Assembly (NCBI GenBank): GCA_035288465.1
Contig: DATEAH010000005.1
Coordinates: forward strand, 67,636 to 131,635
Length of the DNA stretch: 64,000 nt
From: Patescibacteria group bacterium
Lineage (GTDB): Bacteria > Patescibacteriota > UBA1384 > DATEAH01
Direction of reading: 5' to 3'
The number at the start of each line of letters is the position of its first letter. Within the stretch, counting starts at the first letter, position 1. The notes beneath the pieces are model-generated. The model did not search any database. It saw only the letters and a program-made list of their open reading frames with translations, and was not told the origin of the DNA. The translations under genes and the position numbers were made by a program. Of this stretch, positions 3,708-64,000 are shown in pieces.

Positions 3708-3736
3708 ATTTTACACTTATAGTATAATTTTGTCAA
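3708..3736 (-). promoter_or_regulatory. sigma70-like promoter TTGACA-17-TAAAAT for lipoprotein gene
   Basis: Minus-strand TTGACAaaattatactataagtgTAAAAT about 40 nt upstream of start codon. Confidence 0.5.
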
Positions 3737-3737
3737 T

Positions 3738-3842
3738 AAGAACCTCTCGCTTTGCACGAGAACCTTATTGCTTCGCTTACGCGCTACCCTTTCGGACTGC
3801 GGCTTCGCCTTGTAAACGACGCAATAAAAAAGCCGCACTTGG
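3738..3842. repeat. GC-rich structured repeat copy 2
   Basis: About 90% identity to 418-522; abuts the -35 box of the lipoprotein promoter. Confidence 0.8.
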
Positions 3843-7246: not shown

Positions 7247-7783
7247 TCAACCTTTGCCAAGAGTTTTTTGGCCAGGTTTCCAGCCAGCCGGACTCATTTC
7301 GCCGGTTTGTAGGGCTTTGAGAACTCGCAAAATTTCGGTCACACTTCTGCCAACATTATTATCGGAAACTAAAATATAACGAATGATTCCTTTGGGATCA
7401 ATGATAAAAGTGCCTCTTGAGGAAATTCCGGAGGCTAAATCTATTTCATATTTTTGAATGGCTTCTTTGTTGATATCTGATAAGAGCGGGAATTTTATAT
7501 CGCCTAGTTGTCTTGACCATTCCTGATGGGCATAAACGCTGTCGACACTGACTCCTAAAATTTCCGTGTGGCTATCTGCGAATTCCTGATATTTTTTATT
7601 CAGAGCGATAATTTCCGTCGGACAGACAAAACTAAAATCCAAGGGATAAAAAAAGAGAATTACCCACTTTTTACGATAATCTTTTAAGTTGTATTTCTTG
7701 ATATGGTTGGCTTTGAAACCTTCAAGAATAATATTGGGGGCTTTTTGACCAAGTTTAATCATTTTTTTCCTTTCTTTTGCCAC
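7247..7783 (-). CDS. peroxiredoxin (AhpC/TSA family)
   Basis: 178 aa; FFYPLDFSFVCPTE peroxidatic-cysteine motif. Confidence 0.9.
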   Translation of the reverse strand: MAKERKKMIKLGQKAPNIILEGFKANHIKKYNLKDYRKKWVILFFYPLDFSFVCPTEIIALNKKYQEFADSHTEILGVSVDSVYAHQEWSRQLGDIKFPLLSDINKEAIQKYEIDLASGISSRGTFIIDPKGIIRYILVSDNNVGRSVTEILRVLKALQTGEMSPAGWKPGQKTLGKG

Positions 7784-7797
7784 GAGATGGCGAAGTA

Positions 7798-7990
7798 TGG
7801 CTGAGCCATTTTTCGTGGCTCCGGGACAGGGATTCGAAGGGCTAAAGCCCGTCTCAACGCAGTCGTGGTATTTTTATTTCACGATTTGTGTAATAATTTC
7901 AGCATAAATAATTTTGTGGTTTGCGCAACGGGGTTCTCGCCAGATCACGGACAACTCAAAATCTTCCTATAAAACTGAAAAATTTTGAGT
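7798..7990 (-). mobile_element. putative miniature tRNA-linked element A (between tRNA-Gln and peroxiredoxin gene)
   Basis: Contains terminator-like hairpin, gaacccNNNgcg block, AT-rich block, conserved hairpin gggctttagccc (7839-7850) and a 23-nt duplicate of the tRNA-Gln 3' end (7816-7838). Confidence 0.4.
7816..7838 (-). repeat. duplicate of tRNA-Gln 3' end (T-loop to CCA), 1 mismatch
   Basis: ttcgaatccctgtcccggagcca vs tRNA tccgaatccctatcccggagcca at 7991-8013; lacks T-stem 5' strand so not a tRNA. Confidence 0.85.
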
Positions 7991-8064
7991 TGGCTCCGGG
8001 ATAGGGATTCGGACCCCAATTTTCAGGACCAAAACCTGACGTCCTGCCATTAGACGATCCCGGA
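7991..8064 (-). tRNA. tRNA-Gln (anticodon TTG), CCA encoded
   Basis: Hand-folded cloverleaf: acceptor tccggga/tcccgga, D-stem gtct/ggac, anticodon stem tcagg/cctga, loop ttTTGgt, T-arm tgggg-tccgaat-cccta. Confidence 0.85.
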
Positions 8065-8130
8065 ATCTGCTTTAATTCTATCACAAATTATGCTTATTTA
8101 AAATAAAATCACCCAATTTGGGTGATTTTG

Positions 8131-9164: not shown

Positions 9165-9540
9165 ATATCTTGAGTGGATAATAAGCCGAGTTTTGTTCCG
9201 CCAATTGGCGGAAGATAATCATCTATCTTTGCGGTGGGTCCCAAAATGTCCAAAACGAGCAGCTTCATTACCATATGGTGACATTTCAGTCCATTCCACC
9301 TTGCACCGGATAGGGTTTACCACTTTCCGATGTTACCATTGGAAAGAGAGGCTTCTTAGGTCCTCACTTTTCACCCTTACCACGCCTCATCGGCGGGCGG
9401 TTTAGTTTCTGTGACACTTTCCCTCGTTCGCACGGCCCTTCATCCCCAAATGTTAATCTGAAGGGTGCGGGGTATCCTGCTCTGTGGTGCTCGGACTTTC
9501 CTCTCCACCTCATCGGTGGAGCGATTATCTAATCCACTCA
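9165..9540 (-). ncRNA. rnpB: RNase P RNA (bacterial type A)
   Basis: Minus strand contains GAGGAAAGTCCGagCaCC (P4 5' strand) and ACAaAACtCGGCTTAT (P4 3' strand); P1 helix gtcttgagtggat/atccactcaaga; length about 375 nt. Confidence 0.85.
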
Positions 9541-25094: not shown

Positions 25095-25166
25095 GGGCCT
25101 GTAGCTCAGTGGTAGAGCATCTGCCTCTTAAGCAGAGTGTCGAGGGTTCGATCCCCTCCAGGCCCT
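25095..25166 (+). tRNA. tRNA-Lys (anticodon CTT)
   Basis: acceptor gggcctg/caggccc, anticodon stem tctgc/gcaga, loop ctCTTaa, T-arm gaggg-ttcgatc-ccctc. Confidence 0.85.
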
Positions 25167-25259
25167 TTTCCGGAAAGAAAACTCTTTTGAGGTTTTTTTC
25201 GGAAAATGGCTTGTGGTGGTAAGAACCCACAGGCGATAAATAAACAATTGAGTAAAAAG

Positions 25260-25288
25260 TTGATATTTTAGCAAAGACTTAATATAAA
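25260..25288 (+). promoter_or_regulatory. sigma70-like promoter TTGATA-17-TATAAA inside element C
   Basis: ttgatattttagcaaagacttaatataaa; 30-nt block nearly identical to element B (47338-47366). Confidence 0.45.
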
Positions 25289-25323
25289 TCAAAATGTTGT
25301 TGCATCGGGACGGGGTTTACCCC

Positions 25324-25343
25324 TTCGATCCCCTCCAGGCCCT
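25324..25343 (+). repeat. exact duplicate of tRNA-Lys 3' end (T-loop to discriminator)
   Basis: ttcgatcccctccaggccct identical to 25147-25166. Confidence 0.9.
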
Positions 25344-34258: not shown

Positions 34259-34699
34259 TTAGCGCGTGACTGAAATCGTAACATTATTTTCCGCATCAGG
34301 TGCAGAAATTGTTACCCTCCCATTTGCAGTTTTAACAATTTCGTAGCCGGCGCCATTAGTCGAGACCCCTTGGGGATCGGTAGGAATTGAGGTTAAATAA
34401 ACTTCATTGGTGGTCAAAACTGACAAATCAATCAAGCCAGTGCAGGTTCCGCCTGATTTGCAAATTTCTGTGTTGACTGCGGTAATTGAAGCTGGTAAAT
34501 TGCCATTGTTATCCAGAGAATACTGATAAACGGCGTTGAGAACGGTGTTGACGTTCGTCCATCTTTGGGCATTTCTGGAGTCTGCTAATTGTTTGCCAGG
34601 ATTAATAGCAACAATGACAATTGCCGCTAAAATGGCAATAATAGCAATCACCAATAAAATCTCCAAAAGAGTGAAGCCTTTTTTTGAAAACTGATACAT
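34259..34699 (-). CDS. type IV pilin (major pilin candidate)
   Basis: Start [27 protein letters not shown] (prepilin cleavage/methylation motif) after aggagg RBS; ORF track extends to 34768. Confidence 0.8.
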
Positions 34700-34743
34700 T
34701 GATACCTCCTTGTTATATTTTAATTTTATTATAACATATTTGT

Positions 34744-35151
34744 TTAAAAATTTGCTACCTCCAGCCATGAGGTAAGATGAATTTGTGGAGAAATGGTATC
34801 AAGAGTAACTCGGACTTTTTTTATAACTGACTTAACCGTACCAGTCGCGGTCACGGTTCGATTTTGACCAGATTGTATGGTGACAGTATAATTACACGTT
34901 CCCGGGCCTAAAATTAAACTACCAGAGCCTTCATACGAAGTGGCGTCTCTAATTTTTTGTAAACCTTCCTCAGCACAGGCGTTGGCTAATGATTTGGCCT
35001 GACCAGATTGCTCTTTGGAAAAACTAGTCCTTGAGCTTCCTAAGCCGAGCAAAATTAAGGAAATTGCCACCGATAAACTCACGGCGCCGGCAATTAAAAC
35101 ACTAATTAGGGTGATATAGCCTGAAAATTTTACTTTACAATTAGATTTCAT
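34744..35151 (-). CDS. pilus-associated minor pilin-like protein
   Basis: 135 aa, N-terminal hydrophobic segment, in pilin gene array. Confidence 0.45.
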
Positions 35152-35163
35152 TTAATCCCCATT

Positions 35164-35700
35164 TTATCTTAAACTGGCGCTGGTATAAAAAGTTTTATGA
35201 TAATCATATTCATTTCTCGAATTATTATTAACATAACTAATAGTCATTTGAATTCTAATAATGTCTTTAGTGCCGGTTCTGGTAAGATTTTGAAAGGTTA
35301 AATTTGAAATTGTAATTCGTGATGATATTAAGGAAACTGGCGCTAAGTTTCCCTCTTTAATCCTCAAAATTCCCGAAGATTGATCAAAAATTGTGGGACT
35401 TTTGCTAACATCTGGCACATTTAAAGATAAGGTGGGAGACGAAATCCCTTGGTTGGGAGAATTAATTCCGGCTGAGTTGCGAATAGTTTGGGAAATAATT
35501 TGCATTGCTTGCGAACCTTGCTCTTCGACCTCAGCCATGGTTTGATTTTTGATTCGAGATTCTAAGGTTAAAGAAATAAAGATTGAAATAGCCAAAAGTA
35601 ATAGAGAAGCTAAACTCGTATAAAGTAATAATTCAATCATGGTAAAACCAGCCTTAAAGCTTGTTTTTGGGGCAGATTTTAGAGATTGATTATTTTTCAT
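35164..35700 (-). CDS. prepilin-type N-terminal cleavage/methylation domain protein (minor pilin)
   Basis: KAGFTMIELLLYTSLASLLL motif. Confidence 0.7.
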   Translation of the reverse strand: MKNNQSLKSAPKTSFKAGFTMIELLLYTSLASLLLLAISIFISLTLESRIKNQTMAEVEEQGSQAMQIISQTIRNSAGINSPNQGISSPTLSLNVPDVSKSPTIFDQSSGILRIKEGNLAPVSLISSRITISNLTFQNLTRTGTKDIIRIQMTISYVNNNSRNEYDYHKTFYTSASLR

Positions 35701-35726
35701 TAATTTAGACTCCTAAAACTTACTCG

Positions 35727-37520
35727 TTAAAAAATACTCCAAGCAAAATCATACCAAAAATCTAAAACTGCGGAACCATTGGTGCCGTGTTGGCTAAATG
35801 CATCGCCTGCAGGTGCGGCATAAAAAGCATTATTAGCGCCATCCCAAACCAATGAATATAAATCTAAATTAGAATCTGCTAACAAAACCATAATATCATC
35901 GGTATCAGTTTCTGAAATCATTCGCACACTTGAGACATCACCCAAAGAATATGGCGCCGTATTGATCGCGGTTGAGGTTAAATCCCAAGTATTTGTGGCG
36001 GGATTATAAGTTTTAAATTTAGGGGCATAATTTCCAGATAACTCAGAAAAAACTATTAATGCTAAGCTGGCGCTAACCGGTTCAAAACCAGGTTGATAAT
36101 TTCGGGAAATTCTAAGATCTGCTGAGGTGGTGATTCGACCATTAGTGGTAGCGGTTAATAAAGGGGTATAATTAGCCCGGTAACAATTAATTTGAACATT
36201 TCGTGTCGTAGAATCTTTGTCGCAGGCGAGAAAATAATCTGCTCCGGGTTGACCAATAATTGAAACTGGTCCGACGGCACCAGGTTGTGTTGGGCTAACT
36301 GCCGCAGTTGCCCAGCCTCCCCCACCACTTCCATTGGCGGTAAAAACATTAACACTTAATCGTTTATTAGAGGAGTTGCTGGTATAAACTAAACCACCTT
36401 TAGTGTTATTATTTGGGCTCCAATCAAAATCAACAACCCGGTTGGAATTCAAATTTGATCGACTAGGATGGGTAGTAAAAAGGGTCCAACTATCTTGAAC
36501 ATAGCTTGAACCATTAAAATATTGAGTGGTAATAATTTTCGCTTGGTCATAAATTGCCAACATCACTTCGTTTGAACTTGGTCGATTCTTCAAAACAATA
36601 TAATTAGGCCTCGCCGTCGCCGCACCAATTAATTGACAGGAAATACTTGAAGCTGACCAGGAAATCCCATTCCAAATCTTGAACTTGGGAATATTAGTAT
36701 TATCAGTATATACCACCATAAAATCACCGTTTGACAAATATGCACCATCAAAATTCTGGACGTCCAAAAAGGTGTTTGCAGACCAGCTTGATAAAAGATT
36801 TACATTTCCCCAACCAGTCCCATTAAAAACCTGAGCGTAAATAAATTGAGTGGTACTATTAAAGTGACGAGAAACTAAAATTTTCTCATTTCTGGTCGCC
36901 GAGGCAAAAATTCGAGCGGCTCGCAAAGCCTTATTAGCAGTTGCCAAATCAATATCAGCAGCCGCGGTCGCAGCCCCCCAAATACCAGAATTAGCATCAA
37001 AAGTTTTATACATAATTGTATCTGCAGTTGTACCACCATCTCCATAAACCAAAAAACCGCCTTTTTTGTTTTGTATCGTTTTTTGCCAATTAGTCAGATA
37101 GGTTACCAAAGAAATGGTACCTGGACGCTGCAAATTTTGCGGCCAGGTGACAGTTGAGGTGATCTGCTTTCGATTGACATCAACGGTTGAGATGGCGATT
37201 TGACGAGTAAAAATATCTGTCACATCTTGAGTTCCAGAAAAAGTCCAAACATTTGCCGAGATTGCCAAACCATGATTTCCATCAGTTAAATTTGTAAAAT
37301 TGGCATTTCTAATGTTTCTTGTCGCTTCCAAGCCTTCTTCGGCTAAATCTGCGGCACGTGCTTTTTGGCCCGCGATCATGGTAGTTTGTTTACCGTAAAT
37401 AATCGTCCCGACAAGAGTGGCGGTGATTAGTGAAAATAAGGCGGCTGACAATAAAGCTTCAATTAGCGAAAAACCAGTTGAAGATTGTTTGTTATAAATT
37501 AGGAAAAATAATTTAGTCAT
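35727..37520 (-). CDS. large prepilin-domain protein (597 aa minor pilin / tip-associated candidate)
   Basis: N-terminal GFSLIEALLSAALFSLI prepilin motif followed by long Ser/Thr/Asn-rich region. Confidence 0.65.
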   Translation of the reverse strand: MTKLFFLIYNKQSSTGFSLIEALLSAALFSLITATLVGTIIYGKQTTMIAGQKARAADLAEEGLEATRNIRNANFTNLTDGNHGLAISANVWTFSGTQDVTDIFTRQIAISTVDVNRKQITSTVTWPQNLQRPGTISLVTYLTNWQKTIQNKKGGFLVYGDGGTTADTIMYKTFDANSGIWGAATAAADIDLATANKALRAARIFASATRNEKILVSRHFNSTTQFIYAQVFNGTGWGNVNLLSSWSANTFLDVQNFDGAYLSNGDFMVVYTDNTNIPKFKIWNGISWSASSISCQLIGAATARPNYIVLKNRPSSNEVMLAIYDQAKIITTQYFNGSSYVQDSWTLFTTHPSRSNLNSNRVVDFDWSPNNNTKGGLVYTSNSSNKRLSVNVFTANGSGGGGWATAAVSPTQPGAVGPVSIIGQPGADYFLACDKDSTTRNVQINCYRANYTPLLTATTNGRITTSADLRISRNYQPGFEPVSASLALIVFSELSGNYAPKFKTYNPATNTWDLTSTAINTAPYSLGDVSSVRMISETDTDDIMVLLADSNLDLYSLVWDGANNAFYAAPAGDAFSQHGTNGSAVLDFWYDFAWSIF

Positions 37521-37522
37521 TT

Positions 37523-37981
37523 TTAATAACTTACCATGCCTTTTTCGTTTAATATAATCGTTCTCGTATTATTAGAGGTGGACAAAATAATATTACCAAT
37601 ATTGATTGGAAAGCCGGTTAATTTATCAAAAACTACTTCGGTGGCATTTCCTGAACAGCTGATGGTCGAGGGCAATTCAAAAACTTCATCAAAACTGCTC
37701 TCGCGTCCAAGGTAATTGTTACCTTTAAAAAGCACCAAACTTCCAATTTGCGCTTTAAATCCCCAGCTTGAATCACCTTCGCCAGATCTAGATAAAGCTT
37801 GGGCACGACGCAAGGTTTGGGCGGTGATTTCAGCGGCAATATCCAAATCATTTTTTACCTGAAAAGATTGAAAAATGGGAGCTGTTAAACCAACCATAAC
37901 GGCAAAAACCGAAATGGCTAATAAAACTTCCAAAAGAGTAAAACCCAAGCGATTTTTAGTTTTTCGATGATCTCTTTTCAT
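37523..37981 (-). CDS. prepilin-type pseudopilin
   Basis: LGFTLLEVLLAISVFAVMVGL motif. Confidence 0.7.
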   Translation of the reverse strand: MKRDHRKTKNRLGFTLLEVLLAISVFAVMVGLTAPIFQSFQVKNDLDIAAEITAQTLRRAQALSRSGEGDSSWGFKAQIGSLVLFKGNNYLGRESSFDEVFELPSTISCSGNATEVVFDKLTGFPINIGNIILSTSNNTRTIILNEKGMVSY

Positions 37982-38013
37982 AAATCTATCAGCTTCTATT
38001 ATTAGTTCATTAT

Positions 38014-39120
38014 TTATTTGTTCATGCCGCCGATTAAACTATAAATTGGCATAATTACCGATAAAGCAATTAATAAAACTACCACCCAAACGATAATGAG
38101 CAGCACTGGCTCTAAAATAATGGCTAAATTTTTGGTGGTAAGATTAATTTTTTCTTCATAAATTTTACCAATTTTTAACAAAACATCTGATAAATTTCCG
38201 GACTGTTCTCCGGCGACAATCATTTGCTGTAAAGGGTTTGATATTAAATTATTAATCTTGGGAAGATTGGCAAAAGTTTTTTTAAAAGAATTGCCTTCAG
38301 CAATACTAACTTCAAAATACCCATAAAGTTTTTTAAAAGCCCGAAAAGTCGCCACCCCCTTCAAAGAACTCAAAGCATCACTTATCGGTAAACCTGCCTC
38401 TAATAAATTTCCCAAGATATAACCAAACCGAGAAATTTCAATTTCTAAAATTAATCTTTTGGTGCCAGGCAATCTAAATAATAACCCTTGACCTAAATGT
38501 TTGGTTTTGGAATTAAAAAATAAAAAATAGACTAAAAAAATTGTAAATAGTAAAAAAAATGGGACAACATAAATACCATATTGACCTAAAAATTCGCCTA
38601 GCGCAATTAAAGCCCTAGTGGTGATTGGCAAATCAATTCTTAATTGTTTAAAAACCGAGGCTAATTTTGGTAAAATAAACCAAGCGATCCCGGTTCCAAC
38701 TACTAACGCCATAAGTAATATCAAGATTGGGTACATGGTCGCGGAATAAATTTGTGATTTGAAAATTCGATCTTTGCGACGTTCCTCGACAATCATTTTT
38801 AAATTTTCAGCTAAACGACCAGATTGTTCACCAACCCGCACCAAAGAAATAATATAGTCTGGAAATATTTTTAATTTAGCTAAGGCCCGCCAAAGTGCGG
38901 AACCGGAATTTATTTCTTCTTCAAGGTCAGTCATAATTTTCAACATTTTAGCAGTTTTGGTTTCAGATTTGACCGCTTCAATCGCTTGAATCATGGTCAT
39001 GCCAGAAGTCAAAAGCATGGCTAAATTTTCAATAAAATAATCTTTTTCTTGACGAAAACCGATATTAAAAGGCGAACGAGAACGTTTTTGTGGAGGTTTT
39101 TTGGTAGCAGTTTGATTCAT
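38014..39120 (-). CDS. pilC: type IV pilus platform protein PilC (GspF family)
   Basis: 368 aa with two GspF-type repeats and three TM segments. Confidence 0.85.
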   Translation of the reverse strand: MNQTATKKPPQKRSRSPFNIGFRQEKDYFIENLAMLLTSGMTMIQAIEAVKSETKTAKMLKIMTDLEEEINSGSALWRALAKLKIFPDYIISLVRVGEQSGRLAENLKMIVEERRKDRIFKSQIYSATMYPILILLMALVVGTGIAWFILPKLASVFKQLRIDLPITTRALIALGEFLGQYGIYVVPFFLLFTIFLVYFLFFNSKTKHLGQGLLFRLPGTKRLILEIEISRFGYILGNLLEAGLPISDALSSLKGVATFRAFKKLYGYFEVSIAEGNSFKKTFANLPKINNLISNPLQQMIVAGEQSGNLSDVLLKIGKIYEEKINLTTKNLAIILEPVLLIIVWVVVLLIALSVIMPIYSLIGGMNK

Positions 39121-39126
39121 ATAATT

Positions 39127-40773
39127 TTATCCTTCGGGCGAAGCAACCCTGAGCAATTCTTCTAAAGTGGTGAGTCCAAATTTGACTTTTTGAATACCAT
39201 CTTCAAACATAGATTTGTGCCCCTGAGTTCGAGCTAAGGCTTGAATTTGATTTGAAGAAGGATTTTTCAAAATCAAGCTATTTAATTCGCCAGAGTTTGG
39301 GATTAATTCAAAAATTGCCGTTCGTCCCTTAAAGCCGGTTTGGTTACAACTTGCACAACCCTTGCCCTCATAAAGGGTTTGATTCTCTTGAAAATATTTT
39401 TCAGCATTTGGAAGAATTTTTTTAAGGCTGGCTAATTTGACATTTTTTGAGTGACGACAACTTGGACAAATCTGGCGTACCAATCTTTGGGCAACCACTA
39501 ATTCCAAAGTCGAGGCCAAGAGAAATGGCTCAATACCCATATCTAAAAGTCTCGGAATTGCGGTCGAAGCATCATTGGCGTGAAAACTTGAAAGTAATAA
39601 GTGTCCTGTTAAAGCGGCATTAACGGCAATTTCGGCAGTTTCACGATCTCTAATTTCGCCAACCAAAATAATATCTGGATCTTGCCTGATAATTGAACGC
39701 AAACCTTTCGCAAAAGTTAAATTAGTCCGAGGATTGATTTGAATTTGACTGGTACCGACAATTCGATATTCAACTGGTTCTTCGATAGTGGTAATATTCA
39801 CTTCAGTGGCATTTAATATTTTGAGCAAAGCATATAAACTGGTAGTCTTACCAGAACCGGTCGGACCAGTGGCTAAAATCATCCCAAAAGGTTTTTTGGC
39901 AATTTTTTTTACTAATTCCTGATCAGTCGGAGAAAGTCCTATATCTTCTAAGGTAAAACTCCTCACATATTGGGAAAGTAAACGAATCGCTACGGTTTCT
40001 CCATCCAGGGTTGGCACGACCGAAATTCTCATATCAATTATTTCTGATTTATGAATAAGACGCATGGTGCCGTCTTGCGCCGCGTAATGTTCGTCGATTT
40101 GCATATTAGAGGAAACTTTGATGCGGTTTAAAATATTTTCATAAATTAATTTAGGTAATCTGCCCGCTTCTCTTAAAACACCGTCAATGCGAAATCTAAT
40201 AACTGCTTCTTTGCTTTGCGGTTCAAAATGGATATCTGAGGCTCTAAAAATCAAAGCATCTTCAATAATCGCTTGAATGATTTCTGGAGCGATTCTTTTT
40301 TCTGAAGCGATAATTTCGCTAAAACGAGTTTTAAGAGGCGCCTTATAGTGGATAAAGGCAGTTTCAATTTCTTCACCAAAAGCATAAGCTAATATAATTT
40401 TTTTATCTTTGAAAATTGTCTTTGTTTTCTCATCTAAAATCTGACTTGGATAATCTGTGGCTAAAATAACTTGATCTTCAGTTTCTTTAAACAACAAAAG
40501 GTGTAATTTTTTGGCAATTTCTTTGGGTATTCGCAAAACTTGTTCGCGAGTCGGTTGATAATAATTTAAATCCGCAAAAGCGACCTTATATTGCTCAGCG
40601 ATCGCTTGACCCAGGATAGCTTTACTAATAATACCGGTATTTAATAAATATTCAATCACTGAAACACGATTGAGTTTATGATTTTTTTCAGCTTGCTTGA
40701 GATCTTCTTTGGTAATATATTTTTCGCTTAAAAGGATTTCTTTGATCTTTTCTTCAAGAATTCCTAATTTCAT
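39127..40773 (-). CDS. pilB: type IV pilus assembly ATPase PilB (GspE family)
   Basis: Walker A GPTGSGKTT, Asp box, His box, tetracysteine motif CxxC...CxxC. Confidence 0.9.
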   Translation of the reverse strand: MKLGILEEKIKEILLSEKYITKEDLKQAEKNHKLNRVSVIEYLLNTGIISKAILGQAIAEQYKVAFADLNYYQPTREQVLRIPKEIAKKLHLLLFKETEDQVILATDYPSQILDEKTKTIFKDKKIILAYAFGEEIETAFIHYKAPLKTRFSEIIASEKRIAPEIIQAIIEDALIFRASDIHFEPQSKEAVIRFRIDGVLREAGRLPKLIYENILNRIKVSSNMQIDEHYAAQDGTMRLIHKSEIIDMRISVVPTLDGETVAIRLLSQYVRSFTLEDIGLSPTDQELVKKIAKKPFGMILATGPTGSGKTTSLYALLKILNATEVNITTIEEPVEYRIVGTSQIQINPRTNLTFAKGLRSIIRQDPDIILVGEIRDRETAEIAVNAALTGHLLLSSFHANDASTAIPRLLDMGIEPFLLASTLELVVAQRLVRQICPSCRHSKNVKLASLKKILPNAEKYFQENQTLYEGKGCASCNQTGFKGRTAIFELIPNSGELNSLILKNPSSNQIQALARTQGHKSMFEDGIQKVKFGLTTLEELLRVASPEG

Positions 40774-40806
40774 TTCCCTCCTTTGAAATTAGAACTGGCG
40801 GTATTT

Positions 40807-41190
40807 TTATTTTTTGAAAAAATCCTGAACGTGTTTAACAATTTCCACAATCGGCACATCAGATTTAATATAATATTCATTTGCGCCTAAATCTTTGGCT
40901 TTTTGAATATCTTCTTCTTGACTTAAATTCGAAAGAGCAATAATTGGGGTCTGGTTATGCATCACTTTTAATTTTTCCATCACCTCATATCCATCCATAT
41001 CAGGCATAATTAAATCTAAAACAATTAAATCAAAATTTTCTTTTTCTAATATTTGCATGGCTTTAATGCCATTATCTACAGACACAATTTTAAAACCCGC
41101 ATCTGATAATTTTAATTCAAGAGCTCTGGCTAAGGATTTTTCATCATCAGCCACAAGGATTTTTTTATAAATTGCTTTTGGGACAGCCAT
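40807..41190 (-). CDS. single-domain response regulator (CheY/PilH-like)
   Basis: KILVADDEKS...LDLIMPDMDGYE...K receiver motifs. Confidence 0.85.
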   Translation of the reverse strand: MAVPKAIYKKILVADDEKSLARALELKLSDAGFKIVSVDNGIKAMQILEKENFDLIVLDLIMPDMDGYEVMEKLKVMHNQTPIIALSNLSQEEDIQKAKDLGANEYYIKSDVPIVEIVKHVQDFFKK

Positions 41191-47282: not shown

Positions 47283-47450
47283 AGTGGGTAACGAGAGTCG
47301 AAGGGCTGAAGCCCGTCTCAACGCAATTGAATTAAAATTTATTTAATGTTTTTGCTAAAATATCACGTTGATTTTAATAAGTGACTAACGCTTCGGGTTC
47401 GACACACTTACTTATTTCTTTTTGCCGTTTTTAGACGGTACAAAGAAATA
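47283..47450 (-). mobile_element. putative miniature tRNA-linked element B (downstream of tRNA-Trp, upstream of vanX-like gene)
   Basis: Terminator-like hairpin, gaacccgaagcg block, promoter-like block, conserved hairpin gggcttcagccc, 20-nt duplicate of tRNA-Trp 3' end (47283-47302, 2 mismatches). Confidence 0.4.
47338..47366 (-). promoter_or_regulatory. sigma70-like promoter GTGATA-17-AATAAA inside element B
   Basis: Minus-strand gtgatattttagcaaaaacattaaataaa; would transcribe hairpin + tRNA-end copy + vanX-like gene. Confidence 0.4.
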
Positions 47451-47522
47451 AGCGGGTAACGGGAGTCGAACCCGTGTCTTCAGCTTGGAAAGCTGACATA
47501 ATAACCACTATACGATACCCGC
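47451..47522 (-). tRNA. tRNA-Trp (anticodon CCA), no encoded CCA end
   Basis: acceptor gcgggta/tacccgc, anticodon stem cagct/agctg, loop ttCCAag, T-arm acggg-ttcgact-cccgt. Confidence 0.85.
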
Positions 47523-52872: not shown

Positions 52873-52931
52873 CAATTTAAAAAGCGGGATACCGGGATCG
52901 AACTGGCGCCTCCACCTTACCTGCCCGCCAT
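52873..52931 (-). repeat. degenerate tandem copy of tRNA-Gly 3' half immediately downstream of tRNA-Gly
   Basis: gtggaggcgccagttcgatcccggtatcccgct vs tRNA-Gly aagaggtcgccggttcgaatccggtctaccgct; preceded by GGCGCC palindrome; cannot fold into full cloverleaf. Confidence 0.7.
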
Positions 52932-60264: not shown

Positions 60265-62278
60265 AAATAATTAATAAGCTGGAACCTGCAATGGCCAAGA
60301 TCCAGCCTAAATTTGAAATTGCACCATTAGATTTTACCCTATTATCAGTCCCAATTGCAAGATCTGAAGGTGCGGCTTTGGCAGTTTTCGCCCCGAGTAA
60401 TGAATTTTGATTAGTTTCCCCGGTTTTTTCTTTTGTATTTTTACCTTGAACATTTAAAATAATTTTAATATCAGCTAAAAATCTGGGCATTAACCTAAAA
60501 CCAGCCGAGGTTTTGGAAATTATGCCGGTGATTTGAACCCAATCTCCTTTTTGCATTTTTGGCTTTTTAAAGCCAGCTGAAGTTGAAATATAAATTCGAA
60601 CTTTTCCTGAGCCATCATCTATATAAAAAGTATTGCCTGATGATGAAATAATCTTACCCTTAATTTGGACTAATTGTCCTGAATATTCTCCCACATCACC
60701 TGATTTAATATTTTTCGCCGCCGGAGTACCAAAAGAACCAAGAATAATAATATCGCCAGGTTCGCGAATTTTAATGCGTTTTTCCCCACCAGATTCGGAA
60801 ATTTCACCTGAGACCCTAATTTTATCGCCAATTTTTAAATTGGGAAAAAGTTTTTTAGAAAAATAAATTTGAATTCCTGAAGTTTCGTCTTGAAGATAAA
60901 AATATAATTTAGAAAAAGTGCCCGGCAAAACTGTGACTAATCCTTCAACTAAGATCGGTTTGCCTTTGGCTAATTTTTTAGCATTTAAAATCGTGGAGAT
61001 GGTTGGGACGGTTTGGATTTCCTGAATGATATTCTTAGCATTTGGAGTAATTTTTGTCGTCCAAAACCAACTTGTTCCAGATTTTGCCCAACTTTGGCCT
61101 TCAGGAGCTAAAACGTATTTTGCCGATGACGAAGCTTGGCCAAAATTAGGCCATAATAATCTGGCAACATCACCCGAATCATTTAGGGAAATTTTGGTTT
61201 CTTTTTTGTAAAAAACTAGAAAACGACCAGGCAAAATTTGGGTATTGTCGGGAATTAAAAATGGCGTGCTCCCGCCCTCGCCATCATCCAAATACCAACC
61301 AGAAAGATCAATGGTTTTTGTGCCGGAATTATATAATTCAATAAACTCATCATCTGTATCAGTGGCTGGGTGGGGCAAAATTTCAGATATTATGACATTA
61401 TATATAGGAATAAAGAAAGTGCCAAAAGAAATTTGATTAGAAATACTAATTTTTTTAGGCTCAAGGGCAATGGTTTTAATGGTCAGATAATATGTTTGAC
61501 CAGGATCTAAATCTGAAAGTAGATATTGGGTTTGGTCAAGATTATCAATTGTGATAATAAGACTAGTTGGTCCGGTGGAAGAAGTAGCTTGCAAGATTTG
61601 GTATTGGAAAAAGTTTGCATCAAGACTCTTTGTCCAATTTAGTTTTGCGGAATTACCAGTAATTTCCGCGGCTTCATCCAAATTGACTGGTGCGGTTCCC
61701 GGTGATGGATTTGCCTCATCTATAAAATCCATCGCAAAATCATCAGAATCTTCATTGACTGGCATCCTTGTTAAAGAATGTCCTGTGGGAACGCCTGGGT
61801 GGGGATCAAAACAAGTATCAGGGGTTGGGCAATATTCTTTTTCCCATACCACCATATCAATTTCTAAATTTGCACTATCCTTTAAAATCACTAAATCGCC
61901 GGTGTTAGAAAGACTAAGTGGGGAATTTTCAAAGTCTGGGGTAAAATGATATAAATTTTCAAAACCATTTTTCTTCCTGGCAATTGTTAAAAATTTGTGA
62001 GCACCAATTTTTACTCCCGCCGGAAAAATAAAAGTCTCGGACAAATCTGTTAATTTCCAGTTCTCAAGATTAATATCTGTTGAGAGCGGATTAAAAATTT
62101 CGAGCCACTCCTCATCAGCATCTGTGCCCGGAGTATCATAAAAAACCTCAGAAATTAACAAGTGACCAGCACTCGAGTTTTGGGCTTGGGCTTTAGAATT
62201 TTGAGGAAAAACTAAAAATACTAAAATAAAGATTAAAATTAGCCCAAAAAAATTAAATTGAGTTCGCTTTTTGAGCAT
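60218..62278 (-). CDS. secreted surface protein with two lamin-tail domains and C-terminal TM anchor
   Basis: Signal peptide; LLISEVFYDTPGTDADEEWLEIFN and VIISEILPHPATDTDDEFIELYN LTD signatures; C-terminal hydrophobic helix. Confidence 0.65.
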   Translation of the reverse strand: MLKKRTQFNFFGLILIFILVFLVFPQNSKAQAQNSSAGHLLISEVFYDTPGTDADEEWLEIFNPLSTDINLENWKLTDLSETFIFPAGVKIGAHKFLTIARKKNGFENLYHFTPDFENSPLSLSNTGDLVILKDSANLEIDMVVWEKEYCPTPDTCFDPHPGVPTGHSLTRMPVNEDSDDFAMDFIDEANPSPGTAPVNLDEAAEITGNSAKLNWTKSLDANFFQYQILQATSSTGPTSLIITIDNLDQTQYLLSDLDPGQTYYLTIKTIALEPKKISISNQISFGTFFIPIYNVIISEILPHPATDTDDEFIELYNSGTKTIDLSGWYLDDGEGGSTPFLIPDNTQILPGRFLVFYKKETKISLNDSGDVARLLWPNFGQASSSAKYVLAPEGQSWAKSGTSWFWTTKITPNAKNIIQEIQTVPTISTILNAKKLAKGKPILVEGLVTVLPGTFSKLYFYLQDETSGIQIYFSKKLFPNLKIGDKIRVSGEISESGGEKRIKIREPGDIIILGSFGTPAAKNIKSGDVGEYSGQLVQIKGKIISSSGNTFYIDDGSGKVRIYISTSAGFKKPKMQKGDWVQITGIISKTSAGFRLMPRFLADIKIILNVQGKNTKEKTGETNQNSLLGAKTAKAAPSDLAIGTDNRVKSNGAISNLGWILAIAGSSLLIIFVGFQIWRNKIAKNF

Positions 62279-62370
62279 TTTCTCCTTGGTGGGAAAATAA
62301 AATCAATAATTAATCTAATTATACCACGCCAAATTAATAGTTAAAAGTTTTTAAAATTTGTTAAAATCTA

Positions 62371-62399
62371 TTGACAAATTAGATTATTTTTGATATAAT
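62371..62399 (+). promoter_or_regulatory. perfect-consensus sigma70 promoter TTGACA-17-TATAAT
   Basis: ttgacaaattagattatttttgatataat directly upstream of GC-rich transcription unit. Confidence 0.55.
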
Positions 62400-62469
62400 G
62401 TGAAAATTGCGAAAGCAAGGCCGAAAATCCGCCTTTCGGTGGATGATTCTGCTGCAAAGGGGTGTTGTA

Positions 62470-63786
62470 ATGTCTAGGTTGTATCCGGTTGTTCTGCTAG
62501 TGCTGGTTGTCTCCGTCTTCTCTGGCTGCGGAGGTAGCAATGAGAGTCTGATTCCACCAGTTGGTGGACAGGTTGTCACCACGCCACCGACCGGCCGCGT
62601 CATCGCCTTTGGCGAGGTTGCGAACCTTGCCCGCGGCACGACCATGCACCTCCGGCTGAACCGACAGGGAACAGAGGTACGCGAGTACGAGGTGGCGTTC
62701 CTGTCAACGTTCACACAAGGTCCGGATCACCTCATTGTCTGCCAGACCCCCGCCAGCTTGGCGGTGGGAGCCGGGGATTCCGGATCCCCTCTGATGACGT
62801 CCGATGATCAACTCGCTGGCGCGCTGGCTTTTGGCTGGGACGGCGATGACCACCGGTTCATGGCCCGGTCCATCGACGACATGCTCCGGCTTACCCCGGC
62901 GTCACCCGATCGCGGGATTACATTCAAGGAGCAGGAGATCCCGCTGTCCTATTTCCTGCAAGGAGTCTCTATCCCCACCCTTCAACGGCTAGCAACCCTG
63001 GATCGGACAGGGGTGTCTGACAAGTTCCAGATAATCCCTACGAATCCAGGGAGCAACCGACTGGCTACCTCGGTGCCCATGCCAGGTCAGTCAATCTCGG
63101 TGAATTACATCACCGGACCGCTGGTGACCGGCGGAGCAGTCGGGACCATCACCCATCAAACAGGTGATGACCAGTGGCTGATCTTCGGCCATCAGCTGGA
63201 CAACTTCGGTGAAAGGGCGTTGCCGGTTTCTCTCGCGTCGATGGACGTGATGGTCGAGACGACCTTCGGGTCGTTTAAGCAAGCTCATCCACTCAACCAG
63301 CCAATCGGAACTCTAGTCGAGGACCGGATGTACGGCTGTCGCGTTGACCCTAACCGAAACCCCGAGACGTTCCCGGTGACGGTTCGAGTCAACTACAACG
63401 ACAAGACCGAGAAGTACATCCATCAGGTCGCTGCCGACAAGAGCAGTGGTGTTGAGTTGTACTTCATCTTGGTCGGCATCCTGGCACCACTCGACCAGGT
63501 CTTCAATAAGTATGGACCTGGTACGGCCGAGGGCACATTGATTCTTCGTCTCCAGGGCGCAGGCACACAAACCTACGAAATCACCGTGCCCGAGCCGGCC
63601 ATCGACTACGGCGGCGACGAAGGTTACTACGAGGAGAATCCTTCTCCTCCGTATGTGTCGGATCTTTCCTTGGGTGTCGCGGAGGTGGTGATGACGAAGA
63701 TCTTTGACCTTGCACGGTACCATCCAGGTGTTTCTTTCGCCCGGGTGGAACTCAACGTCACACTCCACGACTTCAAGCCGACATAA
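62470..63786 (+). CDS. GC-rich lipoprotein with trypsin-like serine-protease signature
   Basis: Start MSRLYPVVLLVLVVSVFSGCGG (lipobox) after aaagggg RBS; GAGDSGSPLM resembles S1 GDSGGP catalytic-Ser motif; about 58% GC vs about 35% background. Confidence 0.55.
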   Translation: MSRLYPVVLLVLVVSVFSGCGGSNESLIPPVGGQVVTTPPTGRVIAFGEVANLARGTTMHLRLNRQGTEVREYEVAFLSTFTQGPDHLIVCQTPASLAVGAGDSGSPLMTSDDQLAGALAFGWDGDDHRFMARSIDDMLRLTPASPDRGITFKEQEIPLSYFLQGVSIPTLQRLATLDRTGVSDKFQIIPTNPGSNRLATSVPMPGQSISVNYITGPLVTGGAVGTITHQTGDDQWLIFGHQLDNFGERALPVSLASMDVMVETTFGSFKQAHPLNQPIGTLVEDRMYGCRVDPNRNPETFPVTVRVNYNDKTEKYIHQVAADKSSGVELYFILVGILAPLDQVFNKYGPGTAEGTLILRLQGAGTQTYEITVPEPAIDYGGDEGYYEENPSPPYVSDLSLGVAEVVMTKIFDLARYHPGVSFARVELNVTLHDFKPT

Positions 63787-64000
63787 TCACCGAGAAGGGA
63801 GGAAAACGCTTGCACGGTCAGAAGATCAGATTCTGCCGAGCTGCATGGAAAAGGCTGACAAGGGCGATTATCACCCACCAGCCCATCGAGGTCATCCTCA
63901 CGCGGCTTGCCGAGAAAGATCGAGCCGTGAAAGAAGCGGCGATTTGGTGCAGACGGCACCACGCCCATCCCGGCCTGACCATGTCACGGCTCCGAATCGC

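Follow-up and report, generated by a model that had tools for sequence, protein, structure and literature searches.

Gene-less inserts of about 150 bp separate three tRNA genes from displaced copies of their own 3' ends in a Patescibacteria genome

Introduction

Why would a bacterial tRNA gene be followed, some 150 bp downstream, by a second copy of its own 3' end, with no gene in between? The question is raised by the tRNA-Gln gene in a 64-kb stretch of DNA from a Patescibacteria group bacterium (assembly GCA_035288465.1, contig DATEAH010000005.1, positions 67,636 to 131,635 of the forward strand). This whole stretch is called the window below, and positions are counted from its first base. 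tRNA genes are classic landing sites of mobile DNA, and the agents known to use them are integrase-bearing islands of many kilobases. In the window, the scar pattern of such islands arises from gene-less inserts of 150 bp, in a bacterium with a tiny genome.

Results

A complete tRNA-Gln(ttg) gene with an encoded CCA occupies positions 7991-8064 of the minus strand (ARAGORN; Rfam tRNA, 55.2 bits, with alignment). Sequence comparison placed a displaced copy of its 3' end, from T54 to the CCA, at 7816-7838 on the same strand. The last 23 nt of the gene (tccgaatccctatcccggagcca) and the copy (ttcgaatccctgtcccggagcca) are 21/23 identical, with two mismatches; read along the minus strand, the gene ends in ...ggggTCCGAATCCCTATCCCGGAGCCA and, 152 nt on, the copy reads ...gcgttgagacgggctttagcccTTCGAATCCCTGTCCCGGAGCCA. 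Both edges of the match are exact, one falling on T54, the first base of the T-loop, and the other on the encoded CCA, and the flanks of the two copies are unrelated. The copy lacks the 5' strand of the T-stem and was not called as a tRNA by ARAGORN or Rfam.

Between gene and copy lies an insert of 152 nt (7839-7990, minus strand). The hairpin gggctttagccc (7839-7850, minus strand), contained in gcgttgagacgggctttagccc (7839-7860), immediately precedes the copy. Beyond the copy, a second hairpin, gagcca-cgaaaaa-tggctc (7803-7821, minus strand), pairs the CCA end of the displaced fragment, and a peroxiredoxin gene follows (7247-7762, minus strand, ATG at 7762; an open reading frame (ORF) of the AhpC-TSA type). 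An earlier note on this DNA had described a copy of the tRNA-Gln tail that starts at T54 and, having no T-stem 5' strand, is not a second tRNA; a hairpin before it, a CCA-pairing hairpin after it and then the peroxiredoxin gene; and an enclosed segment that holds no gene. All of these features were found as described. For the last of them, neither strand of the insert carries a conserved ORF and no Rfam family covers it: searches with Rfam 15 at E up to 10 returned only the tRNA match in positions 7700-8100, and a search of the whole window at gathering threshold returned only tRNAs and RNase P.

The two tRNA-Gln ends differ in the T-loop. The resident gene (8005-8011, minus strand) reads UCCGAAU, with C at position 55, and the displaced fragment has the canonical UUCGAAU. 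A U at position 55, the site of pseudouridine 55, is nearly universal in tRNAs. This difference fits a native origin of the fragment and an imported resident end.

All eleven tRNA genes of the window were scanned, and the same layout was present at three of them, tRNA-Gln, tRNA-Gly(tcc) and tRNA-Lys(ctt), in agreement with the recurrence at two other tRNAs that had been noticed earlier. tRNA-Gly(tcc), the last of a Pro-Gly tRNA pair (47451-47522, minus strand; ARAGORN and Rfam), is followed by an insert of 148 nt (47303-47450, minus strand) and by a displaced 3' end that runs from T54 to the discriminator base and matches at 18/20 positions (47283-47302, minus strand). tRNA-Lys(ctt), the last of an Arg-Lys pair (25095-25166, plus strand; ARAGORN and Rfam), is followed by an insert of 157 nt (25167-25323, plus strand) and a displaced 3' end identical at 20/20 positions (25324-25343, plus strand). 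In each case the first base of the copy is T54 and its last base is the final base of the tRNA gene. The CCA is not encoded in the tRNA-Gly(tcc) and tRNA-Lys(ctt) genes; their copies end at the discriminator base, and the duplication therefore follows the end of each gene. At two of the three sites a gene begins 17-53 nt past the fragment, and no same-strand gene follows the Lys fragment. One change in the Gly fragment puts C opposite A in the acceptor stem; since this would break pairing, the Gly fragment is a relic and not a working end. With that change, and with none of the fragments called as tRNAs, the upstream, resident 3' ends are the working ones.

One further tRNA 3' fragment stands alone in the window. 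It comprises the variable region, T-arm and acceptor strand (ggtggaggcgccagttcgatcccggtatcccgct; 52883-52916, minus strand) and lies 24 nt past tRNA-Gly(ccc), ahead of tRNA-Thr. It differs from the tail of tRNA-Gly(ccc) at 5/21 positions and has neither an insert nor a stem-loop motif.

Copies of this kind did not arise by chance in shuffled DNA. When a copy was scored as at most two mismatches to the last 20 nt of the tRNA within 600 nt downstream, none was found in 22,000 shuffled downstream regions, compared with 3/11 real tRNAs. An assembly artefact, which the earlier note had named as a possible source of the duplicate, was also excluded. The intergenic DNA of the Gln site was recovered in six contigs from different ENA/JGI samples, five of them identical and the sixth with a single difference, in the 5' acceptor strand of the tRNA; the Gly-site DNA was 100% identical in four more contigs, one of them from another study. 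The arrangement is therefore carried by at least ten independent assemblies with matching Gln- or Gly-site DNA.

The three inserts share one order of parts. Starting from the tRNA, each has a long hairpin, a short GAACCC...GCG block, an AT-rich block and a conserved terminus of 22 nt. The left hairpins all start right at the tRNA end and are unrelated in sequence among Gln, Gly and Lys; that of the Gln insert, actcaaaat...attttgagt (7954-7990, minus strand), begins at the first base past the tRNA. The terminus precedes the copy at all three sites, with the consensus GCRTYGRGAC-GGGS-TTYA-SCCC. In the Gln insert it reads GCGTTGAGAC-GGGC-TTTA-GCCC, a stem-loop that abuts T54 of the fragment (7839-7860, minus strand), and it is identical at 21/22 positions to the Gly terminus (47303-47324, minus strand); in the Lys insert it reads GCATCGGGAC-GGGG-TTTA-CCCC (25302-25323, plus strand). 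A search with the 27-mer formed by the 22-nt motif and TTCGA gave two matches, with none expected from shuffles. Outside the terminus, the Gly and Lys inserts show clear homology to each other (z 8.5). No conserved ORF or small peptide was found on either strand of the inserts.

The AT-rich blocks of the Gly and Lys inserts, read on the opposite strand, contain TGCTAAAAT, which matches the genome's own TGnTAAAAT extended -10 form, a consensus taken from repeat family D1. The corresponding block of the Gln insert (7870-7901, minus strand; opposite strand TGTAATAAT) is weaker than this promoter form. As a side observation, antisense promoter matches of the form TTGATT-16-TAAAAT with TG lie at 47332-47361 (plus strand) and 25265-25292 (minus strand). 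These Gly and Lys matches aim at the tRNA 3' end and would yield RNA antisense to the tRNA tail.

On the tRNA-sense strand, RNAalifold folded the three sequences into a two-part stem-loop. The inner stem is GGGC/GCCC, replaced by GGGG/CCCC in Lys, which is a compensatory change. In the outer stem, UUGAG (AUCGGG in Lys) pairs with UUCGA in the T-loop of the displaced end; some of these pairs are G-U and could not exist on the opposite strand. With three sequences, this covariation is at most a hint of a conserved RNA fold and carries no statistical weight, and the folding energies did not surpass those of shuffles (z -0.8 to +0.7). The description of the locus as a small structured element is weakly upheld: the stem-loop is conserved with one compensatory change, and its folding energy does not set it apart from shuffled sequence.

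A comparable arrangement was found in related bacteria. TypA, for which the NCBI annotation gives a Patescibacteria group bacterium, is 80% identical to Candidatus Nealsonbacteria proteins, and on one relative's contig with TypA of this identity (L068) a tRNA-Lys(ttt) gene is followed by about 380 nt and then by a copy of the last 16 nt of the tRNA. The 380-nt stretch contains a single ORF, of 78 aa, in which Pfam recognised a GIY-YIG domain (E 8e-18). A collection of 5.8 billion proteins contained 452 relatives of this protein, mostly from Patescibacteria lineages with some from Bacteroidota, and these proteins are members of the stand-alone UPF0213/Slx1-like branch (profile E 1e-16 to 1zg2). 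We retrieved 80 metagenome loci encoding relatives, 68 of which were informative in having enough upstream DNA. A same-strand tRNA precedes the GIY-YIG ORF in 46/68, ending 64-289 nt ahead of it (median 114), and a same-strand transfer-messenger RNA (tmRNA) does so in 14 of the remaining loci, so that a tRNA or tmRNA precedes the ORF at 64-350 nt in 60/68 (88%). The commonest hosts across the loci surveyed (L069-L148, L068, L153, L154 and L157) are tRNA-Ser and tRNA-Ala; tRNA-Lys(ctt), which is also occupied in the window, carries a GIY-YIG cassette in L154 and L069.

L069, L080, L107, L119 and L121 have a clear displaced tRNA 3' fragment beyond the ORF, and the fragment in L091 is longer, with its start in the anticodon arm. 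The start of the fragment varies in these relatives from position 54 to 61. Cassettes bounded by a displaced fragment span roughly 350-480 bp, and the 78-aa GIY-YIG nuclease is their sole gene; no integrase was found in relatives' inserts of this geometry. Short inserts without an ORF between a tRNA and its own 3' copy also occur, in L110 (26 nt) and L136 (72 nt), both upstream of a full cassette, an arrangement that looks like serial invasion and decay. Because only two relatives of the GIY-YIG protein were found in IMG/VR, the cassettes are taken to be cellular rather than phage elements. No description of solitary 78-aa GIY-YIG genes at tRNA or tmRNA 3' ends was found in the open-access literature. 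The C55 variant of the resident tRNA-Gln was also seen in tRNAs adjoining GIY-YIG genes, in L124 (Gly) and L072 (Ile).

The leaders of these cassettes begin with CCA-NN-CTTCGC, followed by a hairpin and then by CGTGGCAAGCC. The leader DNA, from the tRNA or tmRNA end to the ORF, has a conserved layout of several helices (for example L100:255-365, L085:1353-1500 and L069:1373-1500). The CCA end and CTTCGC pair with a downstream GCGAAG..TGG, in a helix that encloses a variable hairpin and a GTGG-yaag-CCAC hairpin; the next hairpin combines compensatory stems with a conserved GAAGCTTTAGCGAAG-type loop. Rfam gave no family match in the cassette-leader loci.

Two sequences in the window resemble these leaders. 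acttcgccatctcgtggcaaaag (7774-7796, minus strand) resembles the start of a cassette leader, is the only CTTCGC..CGTGGYA on either strand of the window, and lies 20 nt past the CCA of the Gln fragment; it may be a relic of an older cassette. A second leader signature, CCGAAGCNTT, is found at 12 places in 9 kb of cassette leaders and at a single place in the window, in the Gly insert, as CCGAAGCGTT (47387-47396, minus strand). A tblastn search with the GIY-YIG protein found no match in the window.

The surroundings of the three sites were surveyed over about 81 kb of the genome, the 64-kb window and about 17 kb beyond it, by Pfam on about 45 window ORFs and through the gene tables of two overlapping contigs. 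The genes encountered were housekeeping only (UvrA, IF3, L20, CTP synthase, MiaA, a thioredoxin reductase-like protein, pilus genes and glycosyltransferases), and no integrase, transposase or homing endonuclease was present among the Pfam-scanned window ORFs. The 17 kb beyond the window held no further tRNA with the element. About 7 kb to the left of the window, the same genome has a gene for a 215-aa Y1 transposase (IS200-like, PF01797; L149:18300-19140). Inverted copies of GGGGGACGGTTCTC flank this gene, and downstream are two copies in tandem; L157 has a similar gene at its end. These 14-nt repeats are absent from the window.

Other features of the window were recorded alongside. An intergenic repeat of 95 nt has two copies, 87-92% identical, at 419-513 and 3736-3832 (plus strand); it contains AAGAACCTCTCGCT / GAGAACCTTGTTGCG and GGCTTCGCCTTGCAAGCG, and it resembles the middle block of the Gln insert weakly (z 3.4). 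An RNase P RNA of bacterial class A (175 bits; 9167-9540, minus strand) is encoded on the strand of tRNA-Gln, about 1.1 kb upstream of it, and between the two, on the opposite strand, is an orphan gene of 306 aa with no homologue in the 5.8 billion proteins. A type IV pilus-like cluster at 34259-41190 (minus strand) encodes N_methyl pilin-like proteins, T2SSF, a T2SSE ATPase and a response regulator, and adjoins a PAS histidine kinase. Positions 62000-64000 have a GC content of 52%, against about 38% elsewhere, and hold an ORF of 459 aa without a Pfam match; this region is not rRNA by Rfam.

Discussion

What, then, placed a second 3' end behind each of these tRNA genes? We give about even credence to the interpretation that the three inserts of the window are relics or non-autonomous members of a kind of insertion that targets the T-loop and replaces the 3' end of its host gene. 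The 23-nt copy would be the original, native 3' end of tRNA-Gln, pushed downstream when about 175 bp of DNA entered the gene between positions 53 and 54, at the T-loop. The inserted segment would have consisted of a replacement end, from T-loop to CCA, and about 150 bp of non-coding DNA ending in the 22-nt stem-loop; because it brought a replacement 3' end, tRNA-Gln would have remained intact while its old tail was displaced. The site before insertion would have been a tRNA-Gln ending in UUCGAAU...CCCUG...CCA, followed by cgaaaaatgg... or ACTTCGCC... The same event at tRNA-Gly(tcc) and tRNA-Lys(ctt) would have given rise to a family of three gene-less 'mini-cassettes'. The class of explanation offered by the earlier note, a miniature non-autonomous element or a deletion scar, remains the best one for the geometry of a regenerated tRNA and a displaced fragment.

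Such an insertion could proceed from a double-strand break in or near the T-loop that is repaired from a donor containing the tRNA 3' end, the insert and a second T-loop-to-end copy. The first 53 bases of the tRNA would serve as the left homology arm and the portable, repeated tail as the right one, and spread between genomes would then need only a conserved tRNA gene. Homing-endonuclease cassettes that bring a duplicated gene end spread by this route. Break and repair of this sort is the likely mechanism behind what is seen at all three sites, namely an intact tRNA gene followed by an insert whose ends are defined and by a displaced fragment that runs from T54 to the gene end. The terminal stem-loop would take the place of the 5' strand of the T-stem and is able to pair with the TTCGA of the fragment; it would either keep the fragment from being a target or a tRNA-like substrate, or be the end by which the element is recognised. 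Because the window copies contain no nuclease, they would be relics or would depend on a nuclease encoded elsewhere.

Several results weigh against this interpretation. The inserts have no significant DNA similarity to the GIY-YIG cassettes, whether by Smith-Waterman comparison with shuffles (z at most 2.1) or by blastn-short and an insert-based nhmmer profile, and a second nhmmer profile, built from 72 GIY-YIG ORF DNAs, found no ORF remnant in them. No nuclease or recombinase gene was present in the window ORFs scanned or in the roughly 17 kb checked beyond. The two leader signatures that link window loci to the cassettes were noticed post hoc, and the link is suggestive only. The Gln insert resembles the Gly and Lys inserts in terminus, length and boundaries and has no significant similarity to either of them otherwise. 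The wider occurrence of the motif, for which the earlier note had proposed a search, did not materialise: no copies beyond the three were found in species representatives, IMG/VR or related loci. A scan of 185,579 species representatives with GACGGGSTTYASCCCTTCGA gave 59 hits, nearly all in high-GC, unrelated taxa; seven inspected loci, including the only candidate relative (L010), had no tRNA nearby, and from the taxa and these seven loci the hits were treated as chance matches. The 22-nt motif had no hits in IMG/VR and none, by sequence profile or structure-pattern scan, in about 250 kb of related loci, and a structural pattern scan of 312 kb found only the three known copies.

Nor was an empty site encountered that would demonstrate mobility, all 10 same-species contigs being occupied and essentially identical. 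The five contigs of TypA relatives (L066-L068, L157 and L158) were not syntenic, with no orthologous tRNA-Gln/peroxiredoxin locus among them. Two features of the copies themselves are also difficult for the insertion interpretation. A jump between tRNA species would first make a chimeric acceptor stem, and for this reason simple homing does not explain the spread to three tRNA species. The fragments (87-100%) are much better conserved than the insert interiors, and gene conversion or selection is needed to account for this. Possible causes for the conservation of the 22-nt terminus and the fragments are gene conversion with the resident end, selection at the level of the element, or an RNA function.

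The geometry that supports an insertion is also the one used to map integrase islands, which occupy mostly T-stem/T-loop sites (PMC4383910). It is improbable, in our estimation, that the inserts are att scars or cis-mobilisable miniatures of tyrosine-integrase elements, formed when an island entered the T-loop region and its interior was later deleted, so that attL would lie within the regenerated tRNA, attR would be the fragment, and a related integrase might still move the remaining 150 bp or so. Identity blocks that stop at the tRNA 3' end are typical of such islands, and the conserved 22-nt terminus could bind a recombinase or an accessory protein. However, neither the Pfam-scanned window ORFs nor the adjacent gene tables contain a Phage_integrase match, and one insert terminus is found at three tRNA species, whereas an attP matches one tRNA. 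The GCCC/CCCC to the left of the crossover in the fragment is not an inverted repeat of the T-stem 3' strand, there being no GGG-type arm; three independent deletions to a near-equal length (148-157 nt) are unlikely; and relatives' inserts of the same geometry carry only the GIY-YIG gene. The earlier suggestion of integrase att cores is therefore apt as to geometry and falters as to mechanism, for want of a recombinase in the DNA surveyed, of a symmetric junction and of a terminus particular to one tRNA. Still more strained, and in our view very improbable, is the proposal that the fragments are decayed tandem tRNA duplicates or products of local slippage in which the second copy lost its 5' two-thirds. 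Tandem tRNA genes are common, and the fragment at 52883-52916 past tRNA-Gly(ccc) could be a case of this; but the T54 breakpoint, the upstream 22-nt sequence and the spacing are all shared at three unrelated tRNAs, and no trace of a D-arm or anticodon arm lies upstream of the fragments.

The strong conservation of the 22-nt motif and the fragments relative to the rest of the insert could instead reflect a selected RNA module, in which the stem-loop and the copied tRNA end act as a mimic in a downstream leader or a small RNA. We regard this as unlikely. The module would affect processing, stability or translation, and the antisense promoter could make an RNA against the tRNA tail; its insertional origin would be secondary, and it may coexist with insertion. 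In its favour are the compensatory C-G to G-C change of the inner stem, the G-U pairs of the outer stem that work only on the tRNA-sense strand, the start of a downstream gene so close behind the fragment at two of the three sites, the match of the opposite strand to the genome's promoter form, and the leaders of relatives' GIY-YIG genes, which likewise pair the CCA end of a tRNA or tmRNA with a downstream complement. Set against these are the three sequences, from which covariation gains no statistical weight, folding energies like those of shuffles and the lack of an Rfam match. The Lys copy, moreover, has no downstream same-strand gene, the drift of the Gly fragment ignores tRNA pairing, and the motif is absent elsewhere in the data searched.

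Further candidates were rejected. A group I intron in the T-loop, which would have at least ~200 nt, a conserved core and a terminal G, does not fit a tRNA that is complete and uninterrupted upstream, an insert that ends in C and the lack of an Rfam intron match. An intron or split tRNA would show splice features, and here there are none, and the upstream tRNA is complete. A target-site duplication of the casposon or transposase type, or an IS200/IS605-type insertion, was set aside for the absence of terminal inverted repeats and of a constant left-flank target.

For the T-loop-targeted, end-replacing insertion, the cassettes of related bacteria suggest a more specific and more doubtful form: a non-coding 'homing miniature' of about 150 bp moved in trans by small stand-alone GIY-YIG (UPF0213/Slx1-like) nucleases. 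It would require the target's T-loop-to-3' end on each side and the 22-nt terminal stem-loop, and the nucleases themselves would occupy tRNA and tmRNA gene 3' ends throughout Patescibacteria and Bacteroidota. If this is true, it would make up a bacterial homing system not yet described, one that repairs a structured-RNA gene by replacing its end and not by splicing. Should the inserts be homing elements, no smaller mobile unit that targets tRNA genes would be known, and they would provide a function for the widespread UPF0213 family. In practice, they would leave tRNA pseudo-fragments and broken contigs, and would place foreign terminators or promoters beside housekeeping genes, such as the peroxiredoxin gene here.

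The UPF0213/Slx1-like stand-alone GIY-YIG proteins (PDB 1zg2, 1ywl and 7cq2) form the branch to which the relatives' 78-aa proteins belong; none was found encoded in the window, and no tRNA-gene function is recorded for the branch in the libraries or open-access papers searched. A GIY-YIG gene among tRNA genes does have a precedent in SegB, a free-standing GIY-YIG homing endonuclease of the phage T4 tRNA gene cluster (PMC2988022, PMC13096335), which drives preferential inheritance of the tRNA region. Unlike the 78-aa proteins, SegB is a larger phage enzyme with a DNA-binding part and is not chromosomal, and no tRNA 3'-end duplication is described for it. Replacement of a gene end is known from fungal mitochondria, in which an endonuclease ORF comes with a duplicated 3' end of the host gene, the inserted end being expressed and the native end silent (PMC3630166). 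Examples are atp6 of Allomyces and atp6, atp9, cox2 and nad3 of Glomus, with a LAGLIDADG or GIY-YIG nuclease (PMC3630166). Relatives' GIY-YIG cassettes (L068, L069, L080, L107 and L119) share this geometry, but the fungal hosts are mitochondrial protein genes; the elements described here sit in bacterial tRNA genes, and those of the window lack an endonuclease ORF.

Miniature inverted-repeat transposable elements, REP/RAYT elements and IS200/IS605 mini-elements are likewise short and without genes, have a hairpin at each end and are present several times in a genome; unlike the inserts described here, they make no 20-23-bp duplication of a gene end and have no tie to the T-loop. Genomic islands and prophages placed in tRNA or tmRNA genes by tyrosine integrases leave a regenerated tRNA gene and a displaced 3' fragment, the principle behind Islander (PMC4383910). 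The window sites share with tyrosine-integrase islands the complete regenerated tRNA, the insert and a same-orientation 3' fragment from the T-loop region to the end of the gene. They differ in being about 150 bp long and gene-less, with no integrase found nearby and no core-site symmetry. Integrase-less, cis-mobilisable derivatives of tRNA-gene islands are known as CIMEs. The islands are kilobases long and specific to one tRNA, whereas here one terminus is shared by three tRNA species. A regenerated tRNA with a displaced fragment is a textbook class; a gene-less insert of 150 bp with a terminal stem-loop, at three tRNAs of a Candidate Phyla Radiation (CPR) genome, is not.

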